Below are positions 19,282 through 24,559 of a DNA stretch of 32,000 bases, piece by piece. The stretch comes from Candidatus Saccharimonadota bacterium (lineage in GTDB: Bacteria > Patescibacteriota > Saccharimonadia > Saccharimonadales > Saccharimonadaceae). The translations under genes were made by a program, and so were the position numbers. Location of the stretch: the NCBI GenBank assembly GCA_049296095.1, contig JBAQRV010000001.1, forward strand, positions 1-32,000, in the 5' to 3' direction. Every line of letters begins with the position of its first letter. The first letter of the stretch is position 1. The notes below the pieces were generated by a model, which did no database searches, was not told the origin of the DNA, and saw nothing but the letters and a program-made list of their open reading frames with translations.

Positions 19282-21075
19282 GTGGCTGATAAGCAACCAA
19301 GGAAATGGCGCCGCCTGCCCAAGATGAGTTTCAGCTCAAGAGACTTATCAAGGCGAATGAAAAAGGTTGAGGGTGCAACCGTCAAGCACGCCCGACGGTT
19401 TGTGTTTCGTCGTCTCGATAATTTTCGCGAAGTACGTCGTCACATTGCGATATGGGTATTAGCGATCGGTGTTGTTATCGGGGCGAGTGGCCTTCAGCTT
19501 ATGTGGTACCAACAGAGTTATCGAACGGTCGCTTTTGCTAATGATGGGACGTATGCTGAGGCTGTTTTAGGGCCAGTGAATACCCTTAATCCTATCTTTG
19601 CCAGCACGAGCGCTGAGGAATCGGCGGGAAATTTATTGTTCTCTCGTCTACTTACTTATGATGAGACCGGGCATCTTAATTACGACTTGGCTGAGAGCAT
19701 GACATTGAGTGATGATCGGAAAACTTATACGATCACCATCCGCCCTGATGCTCGTTGGCAGGATGGTATTTATGTCAGGGCTCGGGACGTTGTTTTTACA
19801 GTGAACTTATTGAAGAATCCAGCGACCCGTTCAACCATTAGTGGTTGGGATGATGTGACGGCGACGCTTGTTGATGATCGAACAGTGAGTTTTACGCTAC
19901 CGGCTGTCTATGCGGCCTTTCCACATGCCTTGAATTTCCTGCCAATCCTGCCAGAGCATATTCTCCGCGATGTGGAACCGGGTGCGATTCGTGAGAATGA
20001 GTTTAGCAAAAAGCCAACAGGAAGCGGTCCATTCATTTTTCGATTTGCTCAGGATATTGATTCAGGGGCAGGACGTAAGATCATTCACCTGGCGCGCAAT
20101 AGTGGATATTATGGCGGTATCGCCAAGCTTGATCGCTTCCAGCTTCACGTCTACGATAATGCAGATGCAATTATTCGGGCCGTAAAGACATCAGAAGTGA
20201 ACGCTGCGACCGATCTGACGATCACTGACACTGAGAGTTTTGCAACGGATCGCTATAGCGTAGAAGATAAACCAATTAATAGCGGCGTATATGCTCTATT
20301 TAATACATCTTCGCCGATCTTGCAAGACGGTAAGGTTCGTCAAGCCTTGCAATATGGAACAGATACAACGGCAGTAAGAAAAGCGCTAGATGATGTGGTG
20401 CCTGTGTTGTATCTGCCTTTTGTTGAAGGACAGGTGACTGGCGATATTCCCGCGGCACCAGTCTATGACAGGGCGACTGCTGAACGGTTACTTGATGAAG
20501 CTGGTTGGAGGCTTGACGGTACGGTGCGAAAGAAGGACGGCAATCCTCTGAAACTCGCCTTTGTGACGACAAAGAATAATGACTTTGAAAAGGTACAGAG
20601 CGTTATCAGTAGTCAGTGGCGTGCCTTAGGTATTACTGTCACAACGACTGTGGTTGATCCAACAGATCCGGCTCAGAATGTGGTGCAAAACGTTCTGCAA
20701 CGCCGCAACTTTGATGTCCTATTGTATCAATTGACGATCGGCGGTGACCCAGATGTGTATGCGTACTGGCACTCATCGCAGGCGAATAGTGGTTTTAACT
20801 TCTCAAATTATGCTAATACGACGAGCGACGATGCACTACTGAGTGCCCGCGCCCGCATCGAGCCTGACCTTCGTAATGCCAAGTATCTGACATTTGCTCG
20901 CCAATGGCTCGCCGATGCACCTGCTATTGGTTTGTATCAAGCCACGACTCAGTATGTGTACAGCAAGAGTGTCCATGCCCTGCCAAGCGATGAGGTGCTA
21001 ACATCACCGACCGATCGCTATGCTGACGTCCTGTATTGGTCGGTGGGCGATCGTCTCGTCCAACGTACGCCTTAG
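19282..21075 (+). CDS. ABC-transporter family-5 (peptide/nickel type) solute-binding protein, anchored by an N-terminal TM helix
   Basis: A long basic N-terminus and the TM helix IAIWVLAIGVVIGASGL, then an SBP_bac_5-like body. GTG 19282 has an AGGA SD 7 nt upstream; ATG 19324 is an alternative. The ORF-track start at 19096 overlaps secG and is an artefact. Confidence 0.75.
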   Translation: MADKQPRKWRRLPKMSFSSRDLSRRMKKVEGATVKHARRFVFRRLDNFREVRRHIAIWVLAIGVVIGASGLQLMWYQQSYRTVAFANDGTYAEAVLGPVNTLNPIFASTSAEESAGNLLFSRLLTYDETGHLNYDLAESMTLSDDRKTYTITIRPDARWQDGIYVRARDVVFTVNLLKNPATRSTISGWDDVTATLVDDRTVSFTLPAVYAAFPHALNFLPILPEHILRDVEPGAIRENEFSKKPTGSGPFIFRFAQDIDSGAGRKIIHLARNSGYYGGIAKLDRFQLHVYDNADAIIRAVKTSEVNAATDLTITDTESFATDRYSVEDKPINSGVYALFNTSSPILQDGKVRQALQYGTDTTAVRKALDDVVPVLYLPFVEGQVTGDIPAAPVYDRATAERLLDEAGWRLDGTVRKKDGNPLKLAFVTTKNNDFEKVQSVISSQWRALGITVTTTVVDPTDPAQNVVQNVLQRRNFDVLLYQLTIGGDPDVYAYWHSSQANSGFNFSNYANTTSDDALLSARARIEPDLRNAKYLTFARQWLADAPAIGLYQATTQYVYSKSVHALPSDEVLTSPTDRYADVLYWSVGDRLVQRTP

Positions 21076-21101
21076 GGCTTGAATACAGAGGTCACCTGAG
21101 G

Positions 21102-21107
21102 TATACT
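21102..21107 (+). promoter_or_regulatory. -10 box (TATACT) for tRNA-Val
   Basis: tatact lies 12 nt upstream of the mature tRNA 5' end. Confidence 0.4.
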
Positions 21108-21119
21108 ATCTCGAGGTAC

Positions 21120-21196
21120 GGGTGATTAGCTCAGCTGGCTAGAGCATCTCGTTTACACCGAGAGGGTCGGGGGTTCGAATCCCTCATCACCCACCA
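21120..21196 (+). tRNA. tRNA-Val (anticodon TAC), CCA encoded
   Basis: Hand-folded cloverleaf. Acceptor GGGTGAT/ATCACCC, anticodon stem tctcg/cgaga with loop ttTACac, T-arm ggggg-ttcgaat-ccctc, then discriminator A plus CCA. Confidence 0.9.
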
Positions 21197-21204
21197 TACA
21201 GATA

Positions 21205-21227
21205 GTCCGTCGTTTGACGGGCTTTTT
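21205..21227 (+). terminator. tRNA-Val terminator
   Basis: Stem gtccgtc/gacgggc (one G-U pair), loop gttt, then T5. Confidence 0.6.
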
Positions 21228-21228
21228 G
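21216..21228 (+). repeat. Direct repeat copy 1 (gacgggctttttg), the 3' half of the tRNA-Val terminator
   Basis: Exact 13-mer found again at 21865-21877. Confidence 0.85.
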
Positions 21229-21310
21229 TATGGCTTATGCTTGCAAAATAGATACTATTTTGACATAAATAACGTCAGTCACCACACACGACAGAGAGAA
21301 GGTGAAGTAC

Positions 21311-21799
21311 ATGAGATCTGCTGTGATCGAAGGTCTGAGTGACTTTCAGATGAAGTGTCAGCTGGAGTTGCAGGAGGAGGTGGAGCGCGAACTGGTGGGC
21401 CTGCACCAGGGGGTCGAGTTCAACTTCAAGAGGGATCTCTGGGACGAGACACGCGGACTGCTCCGTGTGGTCGAGTTCGACGATGTCTCCAACCCCAACC
21501 CCAAGAGGGTCGACCAGGTCATCTGTGATTACCAGGTAGGACTCTTGGACATGCTTGAGCAGATGACTGCTCTGAGCAAGAGCCCATTGTCCCTCGAGAC
21601 ACGCATATTCGTGCGGGTTCACAGTGACATCACTTCGGCGAAGCTGGGAATGGTCAGGCGCGGTATCAAGCACATGATGACGATGCGCGTCCAGCTGCGC
21701 AACAAGTGGCCTGCGATGTTCGAGCCGCCGGTGACGAGCAGCGTTTCCCTGGGATCGCTGGTCGAGCCCGACGAAGTCCACTACGACATCCCCGCCTAG
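21311..21799 (+). CDS. Hypothetical protein encoded on the GC-rich cassette (162 aa)
   Basis: The SD aaggtga ends 5 nt upstream of ATG 21311. There is a strong G/C third-position bias in this frame, and a hairpin plus T5 lies downstream on the same strand. No family recognised. Confidence 0.55.
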   Translation: MRSAVIEGLSDFQMKCQLELQEEVERELVGLHQGVEFNFKRDLWDETRGLLRVVEFDDVSNPNPKRVDQVICDYQVGLLDMLEQMTALSKSPLSLETRIFVRVHSDITSAKLGMVRRGIKHMMTMRVQLRNKWPAMFEPPVTSSVSLGSLVEPDEVHYDIPA

Positions 21800-21804
21800 C
21801 ACAA

Positions 21805-21876
21805 GCCCGCGTCCAGAGGGCGGAGTGTTCCAGTAGAAGTTTACTGTGAGCCTCCGCCCCTGACGACGGGCTTTTT
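21805..21876 (+). terminator. Long imperfect hairpin plus T5 (terminator of the cassette ORF)
   Basis: Left arm 21805-21825 pairs with right arm 21852-21871, giving about 19 bp with 3 single-nt bulges and a 26-nt loop, then ttttt. The outer right arm is direct-repeat copy 2. Confidence 0.6.
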
Positions 21877-21877
21877 G
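21865..21877 (+). repeat. Direct repeat copy 2 (gacgggctttttg)
   Basis: Exact match to 21216-21228. Confidence 0.85.
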
Positions 21878-21922
21878 AATTTAGTTAAGAGGGAATTAAT
21901 AACTTGAGTAGATATTAGATGG

Positions 21923-22609
21923 GTGAGATATAAACAGAGAAGAATCTACGAGTGGTCCAATGAAATTGCCTATACAGTGGGGTTGATGGCGAGTGATGGG
22001 TGTTTGTCTAACGATGGGCGACATCTTACTTTAGTGTCTACTGATATTGAACAACTTGAAAATTTTAATAAAGCTATTGGACGGACTATCGCTATAAAGT
22101 TACATCACGGTGGTAAGTTATCGTTACATCGTAAGCAAGGCTACCGTGTGCAATTTAGCGACATAGCTTACTACCAATTTCTTTTGTCAATTGGGTTAAC
22201 GCCGAAAAAAAGTAGGATTATTCCTGCATTGAATATCCCCAATGAGTATTATGGCCATTTTCTCCGCGGACTTTTTGACGGGGACGGTACGACTTATGCC
22301 TACAACGACCCACGTTGGCCAACGAGCTATCTATATTATGTCGGATTCGCAAGCGCGAGTCCTATCTTTCTCGACTATCTTGCTAAGATGAATATGAAGC
22401 TATTTGGCACTGGAGCGGGTGCGGTACGGAAACACAAGGGTGCATCTTCACTCTATTACGCAAAGAAGGATGGATATAAAGTTTATAGAGGTATGTATAG
22501 TGAGTCGGGCGACCTATGGTTGTCACGGAAGCGTCATAAACTAGAAGCCTTTATTCTCATCGCTAACAGTGGTATAATACTAAATAATGCGCGCGTGGTG
22601 GAATGGTAG
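21923..22609 (+). CDS. Free-standing double-motif LAGLIDADG homing endonuclease
   Basis: Two LAGLIDADG motifs, YTVGLMASDGCL and FLRGLFDGDGTT, in a 228-aa ORF with a GTG start. The last 21 nt, including the stop, lie inside tRNA-Leu. Confidence 0.85.
   Translation: MRYKQRRIYEWSNEIAYTVGLMASDGCLSNDGRHLTLVSTDIEQLENFNKAIGRTIAIKLHHGGKLSLHRKQGYRVQFSDIAYYQFLLSIGLTPKKSRIIPALNIPNEYYGHFLRGLFDGDGTTYAYNDPRWPTSYLYYVGFASASPIFLDYLAKMNMKLFGTGAGAVRKHKGASSLYYAKKDGYKVYRGMYSESGDLWLSRKRHKLEAFILIANSGIILNNARVVEW
22573..22578 (+). promoter_or_regulatory. -10 box (TATAAT) for tRNA-Leu, located inside the endonuclease ORF
   Basis: tataat lies 10 nt upstream of the tRNA-Leu 5' end. Confidence 0.4.
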
Positions 22610-22674
22610 ACACGCTTGTCTGAGGGGCAAGTGTCCGCAAGGACGTGGAGGTTCAAGTCCTCTCGCGCGCACCA
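22589..22674 (+). tRNA. tRNA-Leu (anticodon GAG), class II with long variable arm, CCA encoded
   Basis: Acceptor GCGCGCG/CGCGCGC, anticodon stem cttgt/gcaag with loop ctGAGgg, variable arm tgtccgcaaggacgt, T-arm ggagg-ttcaagt-cctct. Confidence 0.9.
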
Positions 22675-22741
22675 CGTTGAATTTATCACCCGTTTGTGCT
22701 ATAGTCACAGATAAGGAAGCCCTGTAATAGGGCATATTTTT

Positions 22742-24559
22742 ATGAAAGACCCAAAACAACTTCGCAACATCGCAATTATCGCTCACGTCGACCATGGAAA
22801 GACGACGCTTCTTGATGGGCTTTTAAAACAAAGTAATACTTTTCGTTCTAACCAGGCTGAAATGGAACAGTCTTTGATCATGGACAGTGGCGATCAAGAG
22901 CACGAACGTGGCATTACAATTACTGCCAAGCAAACAGCTGTTTACTACAATGATTACAAGATCAACATTATTGATACCCCTGGACACGCTGACTTCTCTG
23001 GTGAGGTTGAGCGAACCCTTAACATGGCAGATGGTGTTCTATTGATCGTTGATGCCCAAGAGGGTCCGATGCCTCAAACGAAGTTCGTTTTGTCAAAGGC
23101 GCTCGAGCTTGGGCTCAAGCCAGTCGTCGTTATTAACAAGATCGACAAGCCGTCTCGTCGTATCGCTGAAGTGGAAGACGAGGTTGCTGACCTATTTCTC
23201 GAACTTGCGGTTGATGATAGCCAGCTTCACTACCCGATTTACTACGCGATTGGTCGCGAAGGAAAAGCATGGGCTGAGTTGCCCGAGAACACCGATCTTC
23301 ATACTGATCTGACGCCAATCTTTGACGCGATTATTAATGACATTCCTGCGCCACAAGTAAAGGTAGACGAGCCATTCCAAATGCTTGTCACCTCACTTTA
23401 TTATGACTCGTTCCTCGGTAAGTACGCCATCGGCCGTATTTCTCGCGGAAAGATTACAAAATCATTACCGATTGTCCTCATCAAGCGCGATGGCTCACAG
23501 GTTTCGGCAAAAATCGACAAACTATTTTCATACCGTGGTTTGCAACGTGAGGAAATCACTGAAGCTGGTGCTGGTGATATCGTCGCCTTGACCGGTATTT
23601 CTGATGCGCATATCGGTGAAACGATTGCTGACAAGGAAAATCCAGAAGCGCTGCCAGTTATTGATATCGAAGCGCCGACAATTAGCATGTACCTTGGTCC
23701 AAACACCAGTCCTTTGAAGGGCAAAGAAGCCAAGTACAATACCAGTCGTCAGATTGGTGATCGCTTGAAGCAAGAAATTGAAACCAACGTCTCACTTCGT
23801 GTTCGCGAAGAGGGGATTGGCTTTGTGGTTTCAGGCCGTGGTGAGCTTCACTTGTCTGTCTTGATTGAGACATTGCGACGTGAAGACTTTGAATTTGAAG
23901 TTGGTCGTCCACAGGCCGTCACGATCGAAGAAGATGGTGAGATTAAAGAGCCAGTTGAAGAATTGCTGATTGAAGTAGCCCCTGAGTTCCTCGGCGCTGT
24001 CAGCCAAGAGCTCGGTGCTCGAAAAGCAGCTCCTATCAAGCAAGAGCAGACGAGTAGCGGCACCACTCGTTCAACTTATATCATCCCGACTCGAGCAATG
24101 ATTGGACTTCGCAACCTTCTTCTGACGGCGACAAAGGGGACGGTCATTATGAACTCGCTTCCTCACGGTTATCAACCACTTGGTGCCAAGCTCCAGCAAA
24201 TGCGTAATGGTGCCTTGGTCGCCTTTGAAGCGGGCACGACGACTGCCTATGCACTTGATGCTGCAGCGGCTCGTGGCGAGCTTTTCGTTGGCCCTGGTAC
24301 CATCGTCTATCAAGGTATGATTGTCGGACTCTACAACCGTGGCGGTGATCTAGATATTAACGTCTGTCGTGGCAAACAGCTGACCAATATGCGTAGCTCA
24401 TCGAGTGATGGCACGATTCAGCTGACGCCATTTACTGACCTGAGCCTTGAGCAGTGTATCGACTTTATTGAAGACGATGAACTTCTCGAAGTAACGCCAA
24501 AGTCACTTCGCCTCCGCAAGCGTTTTCTTGACCCGAACCAACGCAAGCGCAACAAGTAA
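22742..24559 (+). CDS. typA: Translational GTPase TypA/BipA
   Basis: 605 aa. Motifs G1 [14 protein letters not shown]3 DTPGHADF and G4 NKID, with a BipA-type C-terminal domain. Confidence 0.95.

Follow-up and report, generated by a model that had tools for sequence, protein, structure and literature searches.

A putative promoter-ORF-terminator cassette with a GC3-rich orphan gene in the variable tRNA-Val/tRNA-Leu gap of a Saccharibacterium

The DNA considered here (the window: the whole analysed stretch, positions 1-32,000, 32 kb in length) comes from a Saccharibacterium, and our study concerns the gap between its tRNA-Val and tRNA-Leu genes, specifically positions 21,205-21,877 and their 3' neighbours, where an open reading frame (ORF) for a 162-aa protein differs sharply in base composition from the surrounding genes. 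We consider it likely that positions 21234-21877 make up one self-contained unit, consisting of a promoter, the ORF and a terminator, that this cassette belongs to a lineage-restricted family of such units, and that it is lodged after an intact tRNA-Val terminator in a hypervariable gap. A preliminary description of the same DNA had proposed a foreign ORF inserted into the tRNA-Val terminator and bounded by 13-bp direct repeats. As described below, the outlying composition of the ORF and the accessory nature of its site were borne out, but the insertion-duplication mechanism was not.

The putative cassette can be divided into 3 parts, all on the + strand. The promoter and leader module (21234..21310) contains a candidate -35 element, TTGCAA (21241-21246), a 17-nt spacer and the sequence CATAAA (21264-21269), followed by the leader CAGTCACCACACA (21276-21288) and by a Shine-Dalgarno (SD) sequence, AAGGTGA (21299-21305), which the preliminary description had also picked out. 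The ORF (21311..21799) comes next, and then a hairpin (21803-21873; ΔG -49.9 kcal/mol, z -9.3) which, together with its T-tract (T5), forms a predicted terminator at 21803..21877, in agreement with the earlier proposal that the ORF has a terminator of its own. In the mechanism that we propose, the ORF would be transcribed alone from the cassette promoter, with transcription stopping at the hairpin.

A homologous promoter-leader module was observed in the related loci L009, L007 (3 copies), L010 (2 copies), L098 (2 copies), L001 and L083 (alignment A5), and in relatives it was found to front unrelated ORFs. A hidden Markov model of the module (nhmmer) gave 13 hits in ~1 Mb of Saccharibacteria DNA, all of them at cassettes and none elsewhere; these 13 cassette copies are spread over eight different genomes or contigs and are in every case located at hotspots adjacent to tRNA genes. 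The units share a common order of parts: the sequence GCTYATGCTTGCAA, a spacing of 17-18 nt, CATAAMTAA and then CAGTCACCRCACA, often with the SD sequence AAGGTGAAGTA; a cargo of one or two small ORFs; and a hairpin of 60-85 nt with the outer stem AAGCCCGC/GCGGGCT and a T-tract. Homologous hairpins follow other cassettes (alignment A4), and compensatory changes were seen at 9 of the 19 pairs. At L009, for example, the same tRNA-Val terminator, promoter region and homologous 3' hairpin surround an unrelated 108-aa ORF whose G+C fraction at third codon positions (GC3) is 0.76. L007 corresponds to L009 with a 2.45-kb insertion and holds three units; L010 carries two units between tRNA-Leu and typA, with cargo that includes YbjQ-like and glutaredoxin-like proteins; and L098 has two tandem units beside tRNA-Met. 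The cargo ORFs of L007, L010 and L098, orphans among them, have GC3 values of 0.63-0.78, except for a 211-aa ORF of L007 (0.52). These comparisons showed that the anatomy is modular and that it recurs, with a conserved putative promoter-leader and a predicted terminator hairpin on either side of small, usually GC3-rich ORFs that are unrelated to each other. An Rfam scan of positions 21000-22800 matched only the two tRNAs, leaving both the promoter module and the hairpin of the cassette without an Rfam family.

The composition of the ORF is clearly different from that of the remainder of the window. Its GC content of 0.581 compares with a mean of 0.469 for stretches of 489 nt across the window (z 3.3) and was not attained in any of the 30,534 background windows; its tetranucleotide distance from the window average was the largest among 307 windows; and its GC3 is 0.798, while the values for the other 25 genes lie between 0.369 and 0.561 (z 6.5). 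G+C contents at the first and second codon positions (GC1 and GC2) are host-like. The ORF is the strongest compositional outlier of the window, and in this respect computation across the whole window confirmed the preliminary description, in which one detail needs correcting: the hand count of 40/60 G+C at 21361-21420 was exact, but the count just downstream is 17/60 rather than 22/60. Long ORFs are open on both strands here, as had been stated (+ strand, 21302/21311-21799; - strand, 21275-21802). The 175-aa antisense frame (21275..21802, -) was considered as a second gene and rejected. Its GC contents by codon position (0.80/0.34/0.60) are not coding-like, and it presumably stays open because it is codon-aligned with a gene of high GC3, in which TTA, CTA and TCA are avoided.

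The sense ORF, by contrast with this shadow frame, is a real protein-coding gene, fast-evolving but under purifying selection, because its omega is low (0.35-0.44; dN/dS 0.35 for the window versus L001), its indels are in frame only (42 nt versus L002, 21 nt versus L001), and the start codon position and SD sequence are conserved among relatives. Its family has four members, each located directly after tRNA-Val: the window protein; P0001 (L002, on a contig 99% identical in nucleotides), which has one substitution and a 14-aa in-frame deletion; P0002 (L001), with 61% amino acid identity to the window protein; and P0003 (L083), with ~34% identity, which was retrieved only by a profile scan of 1.84 billion representatives. 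Neither that profile scan nor a search of 5.8 billion proteins gave a homologue from anywhere but this one slot of Saccharibacteria, and tblastn against phages and plasmids and IMG/VR scans with the protein profile and the promoter pattern gave no meaningful match. Searches of the ORF product and its relatives against Pfam, PHROG, NCBIfam, PADLOC and the PDB sequence profile were likewise negative. GC3 is 0.73-0.80 in all four versions of the ORF, versus 0.45-0.47 for typA in the same genomes, and the central codons are synonymously saturated (proportion of synonymous differences, pS, 0.64-0.75), as compared with a pS of 0.10 in the first 30 codons. Since GC3 is high in every version despite this saturation, the high GC3 is either old and maintained or repeatedly re-imported, and not merely the mark of a recent arrival.

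Several local features of the alignments may be mentioned here. Between the window and L001, in which typA is synonymously saturated (protein 97% identical, dS 1.9), the first 30 codons, the last ~12 codons and the hairpin (21311-21400 and 21760-21877) are almost identical, and the centre of the ORF is 60-70% identical; the near identity of the ends could reflect either constraint at the nucleotide level or mosaic recombination at the cassette ends. The 42-nt in-frame deletion in L002 (835-842, versus window 21727-21768) lies between two TCGAGCC repeats and removes a 14-residue linker stretch, where the window reads PPVTSSVSLGSLVE (21728-21769); L001 has 7 extra residues at the same linker position.

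The gap in which the cassette lies is anchored on the left by tRNA-Val(tac) (21120..21196, +; ARAGORN, and Rfam tRNA at 68.7 bits) and on the right by tRNA-Leu(gag) (22589..22674, +; ARAGORN and Rfam). We scanned species-representative genomes with the upstream solute-binding protein (SBP) and obtained 80 loci (L003-L082), nearly all of them labelled Saccharibacteria, Microsaccharimonas or Patescibacteria, which agrees with the guess made earlier as to the organism. The order SBP, tRNA-Val, tRNA-Leu, typA is conserved across loci, but the length of the gap between the two tRNA genes varies in these 80 loci between 16 nt and ~5 kb. Because the gap is nearly empty (16-21 nt) in some relatives (L003, L020, L024), the ORF is accessory, an addition relative to an ancestral short gap. 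Its contents elsewhere include LAGLIDADG genes, ~222-aa helix-turn-helix (HTH) proteins, ~150-aa membrane proteins, small GC3-rich ORFs and, in L012, a 1264-aa YobI-like P-loop NTPase (PF20693, 7e-110). The ~222-aa family with its N-terminal HTH (MKLDERN...GVAKSSVS.WVRD) and the ~150-aa predicted membrane proteins are recurrent occupants with host-like GC3 (L048, L052, L062, L071, L077; L025-L027, L038, L063).

True integrations at this gap could be recognized by direct repeats of the tRNA-Val 3' end, namely CCCACCATAC in L007 (7926-10384) and CGCCCACCA in L012 (6424-11394). Each of these two islands ends in a ~147-aa HTH_7/HTH_58 gene whose start codon lies in the right-hand tRNA remnant, and no integrase is visible in either of them. 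In the window CCCACCA occurs once, so that there is no duplicate of the tRNA-Val 3' end. According to the proposed mechanism, cassettes would be brought in by small islands of the L007 and L012 type, with tRNA 3' ends as integration sites, and recombination between the conserved modules, promoter and terminator, would afterwards exchange or remove them.

Three side observations concern the same region. An HTH protein related to those of the L007 and L012 islands is present in the L098 island, together with Fic and C39-like peptidase proteins. The genes for tRNA-Val(tac) and tRNA-Leu(gag) were observed in all four relative orientations and in both orders between the same flanking genes, SBP and typA (L003-L082), which implies repeated small inversions at this spot, and a second variable slot of up to 3.5 kb, often with pilin-like genes, is located between tRNA-Leu and typA. 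Also, three loci with clear Saccharibacteria synteny, L012 (DATMTU010000165.1), L068 and L076, carry the public labels of Dongiaceae, Verrucomicrobiia and Pirellulaceae metagenome-assembled genomes (MAGs), and these records are probably mis-binned.

The left boundary of the cassette depends on the structure of the tRNA-Val terminator (21197..21233, +; folding ΔG -18.4 kcal/mol, z -6.7), which a terminator scan also picked up. The 13-mer GACGGGCTTTTTG occurs exactly where the preliminary description had placed it, at 21216-21228 and 21865-21877, and an exact search of the window revealed no third copy. Copy 1 constitutes the 3' arm and T-tract of this terminator, whose outer stem pairs the trailer UACAGA (21197-21202) with UUUGUA after the T-tract; within this outer stem CCATACA, from the tRNA 3' end and trailer, is paired with TGTATGG, which likewise comes after the T-tract. 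Since the terminator includes this outer stem and the same layout is present in the cassette-less genomes L008 and L014, the earlier statement that the ORF was inserted into the terminator did not stand: the terminator is complete, and the cassette begins after it, at ~21234. Copy 2 constitutes the 3' arm and T-tract of the cassette's own ~70-nt hairpin. We concluded, on the basis of the predicted foldings and the comparisons given below, that the 13-mer is the tail of two separate terminators and not a target-site or att duplication, because each copy pairs inside a different hairpin, because the match drops in relatives, and because true integrations at the gap duplicate the tRNA-Val 3' end. 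The 13-mer may nevertheless have provided short homology for gain or loss of a cassette, and recombination at a hairpin, which the preliminary description had given as a third option, is compatible with the modular architecture.

The alternative, that a foreign ORF entered into or at the tRNA-Val terminator through a transposition or site-specific event which duplicated the 13-bp target GACGGGCTTTTTG, draws on the exact repeat on both sides of the ORF, on the emptiness of the gap in some relatives, and on the match of 12/13 between the two terminator ends that is kept in L001 and also in L009 and L007, which hold unrelated ORFs. The repeat is indeed unlikely by chance when compared with shuffled sequence, but less so against the real background: among the 80 related loci, 5 have exact 13-mer direct repeats of terminator-like sequence, and GGGCTTTTTG, a generic strong-terminator end, is by itself found 0.8 times per 32 kb. 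Moreover, the match falls to 10/13 in the sister strain L002 and to 9/13 in L011, and is poor in L083; the TATGG that follows copy 1 belongs to the conserved outer stem, so the insert does not start at the repeat; and the tandem cassettes of L098 and L010 are bounded by near-identical terminator ends as well, because every unit finishes in a terminator. No domain of an integrase, transposase or resolvase was found in any ORF of the window, and the empty site predicted by a duplication (the terminator followed directly by GAATTTAGTT, or a single 13-mer followed by GAATTTAG) was found neither in ~100 loci nor in a metagenome scan, although that scan also missed the known JGI contig L002. We regard such a duplication as very improbable. 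Ectopic conversion of copy 2 by copy 1 may have taken place, but a comparison of CTGGATGGCGGGC, as found in L001 and L002, with CTGACGACGGGC, as found in the window, does not show a clean replacement. The idea of IS200/IS605-like hairpin ends was dropped because the end hairpins are inconsistent across relatives and neither TnpA nor TnpB accompanies them. A second alternative, also raised in the preliminary description, is that a GC-rich contaminant fragment was joined to a Saccharibacteria contig during assembly. Composition does shift abruptly at the ORF. However, the window is identical (0 mismatches) to GCA_049286885.1 contig JBAQET010000004.1, and the exact 162-aa protein is present on 7 contigs; in the five of these that were read (two NCBI MAGs and three Logan runs, with the window's own record among the five), the downstream junction was identical in all five and the upstream junction in four. 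Diverged versions occupy the same context in JGI, Logan and ENA contigs. The one exception upstream is L088, in which the 3' end of tRNA-Val and the 5' arm and loop of the terminator are different. This contig (L088 1-970, Logan SRR28062503) is a mosaic, in which the tRNA-Val 3' end and terminator loop match L001 exactly and the remainder, starting with the promoter, matches the window exactly, with the breakpoint inside the shared 34-mer GACGGGCTTTTTGTATGGCTTATGCTTGCAAAAT; it arose either by recombination where terminator and promoter join or as an artefact of assembly at k=31. A k-mer artefact is possible at that one breakpoint, and since k=31 assembly can bridge a shared stretch of 34 nt we also gave L088 little weight as proof of recombination at the terminator. 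With the junctions reproduced in independent assemblies, a chimera is excluded for practical purposes.

Two further alternatives accept the locus as authentic and differ from our reading in the origin they assign to the gene. One is a recent and direct transfer into the episymbiont from a high-GC bacterium serving as its host, such as an actinobacterium; host-to-symbiont transfer had been raised as a possibility in the preliminary description. Saccharibacteria do live on other bacteria, and a GC3 of 0.80 would fit a donor genome of ~58-62% GC, an estimate that follows from the relation of genome GC to GC3. Yet the protein, phage, plasmid, IMG/VR and family-library searches identified no GC-rich donor and no homologue beyond the same slot, the family is old in Saccharibacteria (61% and 34% identity, with saturated central codons) and has high GC3 in every copy, GC1 and GC2 are host-like, and the promoter, SD sequence and terminator are modules of the Saccharibacteria cassettes; we therefore consider a recent transfer of this kind highly unlikely. 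Somewhat less improbable, but still unlikely in our judgement, is a native, vertically inherited, lineage-specific gene that was never mobile and whose GC3 was raised locally, either by GC-biased gene conversion at a recombination hotspot or by selection on the mRNA. The same position in four diverged lineages, a central pS comparable to that of typA (0.69) and consistent with co-divergence, a GC3 that has been maintained rather than ameliorated, and the host-like GC1 and GC2 would all be expected of such a gene. What it does not accommodate is the presence of unrelated ORFs within the same flanks in L009 and L007, of the same modules at other tRNA loci (tRNA-Met in L098, the tRNA-Leu/typA gap in L010), and of close relatives with an empty gap; also, the known effects of GC-biased conversion in bacteria are far smaller than a shift from 0.47 to 0.80. 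In our preferred reading, that of a cassette family, high GC3 would reflect membership in a mobile gene pool or a GC bias linked to recombination, and not a recent jump from a high-GC host.

Immediately 3' of the cassette, a second gene (21923..22609, +; 228 aa) encodes a LAGLIDADG protein (PF14528 6.5e-7, 30.0 bits versus a gathering score of 22.5; phrog_4645 1.5e-28) with the motif-like stretches GLMASDG and GLFDGDG. It starts 45 nt downstream of the cassette, and its stop codon lies ~20 nt inside tRNA-Leu; its last codons cover the tRNA-Leu -10 box (TATAAT). The preliminary description was literally correct that no recombinase is present in the 32 kb, but it had overlooked this adjacent endonuclease gene. 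The protein has 168 homologues at E <= 1e-10, and the source-given names among the 120 listed were all of Patescibacteria type. In the six lineages examined the gene was always located just 5' of tRNA-Leu(gag), the same arrangement being seen in L029, L035, L091, L092 and L095 at 49-71% identity. It is absent from L001 and from L002, which is 99% identical across the ORF region; L002 has an endonuclease-free allele with the junction TTCAAAAG/GCTAACAGTGG and keeps GCTAACAGTGGTATAATAC, the sequence of the gene's last codons. From its domain, its presence/absence polymorphism and its fixed site, it can be classed as a LAGLIDADG homing endonuclease gene of the free-standing type. Divergence between the window and L002 begins at ~21858, spans this gene and ends only within the first part of tRNA-Leu; alleles with and without the endonuclease thus differ across a block that includes copy 2 of the 13-mer. 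Since L029, L035 and L092 have the LAGLIDADG gene without the GC-rich ORF (L091 is a short contig with only the gene and tRNA-Leu), and each of the two occurs without the other among relatives, they vary independently.

The product of the GC-rich ORF is acidic (pI 5.2), has no hydrophobic segment, and ends in a conserved C-terminal tail, EPDEVHYD(I/M)PA, located after the indel-prone linker; we take the DIPA motif at its end to be loosely like the DDDIPF tail of SSB. An AlphaFold2 model built from 4 sequences (pLDDT 71, pTM 0.63) predicted a helical bundle with a disordered tail, while one built from 3 sequences was unusable (pLDDT 46), and in Foldseek searches neither PDB nor BFVD yielded a structure that matched it more closely than at E 0.3 and TM 0.39. 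We infer that the product is probably a soluble, acidic, helical accessory protein. The most plausible guess as to its role would be in conflict or host interaction, because it evolves fast, is an orphan, and has defence-like or selfish cargo as neighbours (YobI-like NTPase, Fic, homing endonuclease).

Several observations weigh against our reading and should be considered alongside the evidence that supports it. A sigma-70 consensus scan did not call the promoter, whose -10 sequence (CATAAA/CATAAC) is poor by that consensus, so that its assignment rests on conservation. The conserved flanks could represent ordinary regulatory constraint rather than recombination joints, and an unrelated sequence, the spacer between tRNA-Leu and typA, likewise shows 96% identity when the window is compared with L001. 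We could associate no mobility enzyme with the cassettes; the L007 and L012 islands offered only the HTH proteins, with no integrase inside their limits. The cassette census covers ~100 loci, and a metagenome scan with a merged degenerate pattern that matches both window junctions gave only two chance hits in unrelated DNA and failed to recover the known JGI contig L002. Finally, the structural model is of moderate quality and without a match, so that the functional guess is weak.

A broader proposition, which we offer tentatively and regard as possible but doubtful, is that Saccharibacteria, as members of the candidate phyla radiation (CPR), have an undescribed modular cassette system, in which a conserved, non-canonical promoter-leader and a long conserved hairpin would have a double role, directing expression and acting as the joints through which unrelated GC3-rich ORFs are captured, arranged in arrays and exchanged at tRNA-adjacent hotspots, units would be delivered by HTH_7/HTH_58-marked islands integrating at tRNA 3' ends, and the GC3 excess would reflect a shared extrachromosomal pool or a strong recombination-linked GC bias, with the window ORF as one cargo. 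A literature search aimed at other subjects yielded no account of such promoter-hairpin cassettes. Given the tiny genomes of Saccharibacteria and their life on the surface of other bacteria, the few sites where they gain or swap genes are likely to hold genes of host and phage conflict; the tRNA-Val/tRNA-Leu gap is one such site, occupied in one subclade by promoter-ORF-hairpin units that have shared regulatory modules and whose cargo is orphan and GC3-rich. Should the modular system prove real, searches for the promoter and hairpin would provide a handle on CPR accessory genes, the modules would be candidate native expression signals for organisms that are hard to engineer, and the cassettes would constitute a test case for how GC3 stays high in a low-GC genome. 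If it is not, what we describe is simply an orphan gene, of an ordinary kind, within an intergenic islet that varies among relatives. In either case, the interest of the locus lies in the cassette family and its persistent GC3 excess, and not in the repeat.

The cassette may be compared with several known systems, none of which it resembles in every respect. Phage morons have been described as having their own promoter and terminator and a GC content unlike that of their neighbours, and as additions relative to related genomes (Cumby, Davidson and Maxwell 2012, PMC3594210). The present cassette is likewise an addition relative to its relatives and an outlier in GC3, and has a predicted terminator of its own with covariation in relatives. 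Its ORF is preceded by a candidate promoter module (TTGCAA-17-CATAAA) that recurs in 13 cassettes but was not called by the sigma-70 consensus scan. In contrast to morons, it is not located in a phage or prophage, its neighbours being housekeeping genes in conserved synteny with no phage matches; many cassettes share one homologous promoter-leader and one homologous hairpin, as morons do not; and the places where they cluster are chromosomal hotspots beside tRNA genes in a CPR bacterium. With tRNA-targeting islands, of which L007 and L012 furnish examples in the same gap, the window cassette has in common a position adjoining a tRNA gene and an atypical composition, but it has no second tRNA 3' end and no integrase, and is a single 0.64-kb unit. 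Integron cassettes also consist of small unrelated ORFs, each followed by a long imperfect palindrome with a conserved outer and a variable inner part, and sometimes form tandem arrays. Here, however, each unit appears to have its own promoter, and the hairpin, with its T-tract, is terminator-like; no GTTRRRY/RYYYAAC core was seen by eye, and there is no IntI or other tyrosine recombinase and no attI, for which reasons we rejected the idea that the hairpins are attC sites. The cassette differs from a transposon or insertion sequence with target-site duplication in that the window repeats do not abut the ends of the insert, and in that no transposase is encoded in the window. As for the neighbouring gene, LAGLIDADG genes of CPR bacteria have been described in rRNA-gene insertions (PMC11270868), and general surveys of gene transfer in Patescibacteria exist (PMC12455944). 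The window gene resembles the former as a free-standing member of the family that is present or absent between near-identical strains, and differs from them in its location, which is not an rRNA intron or insertion but the position just 5' of tRNA-Leu(gag), into which the gene extends with its stop codon, and in varying independently of the GC-rich ORF.

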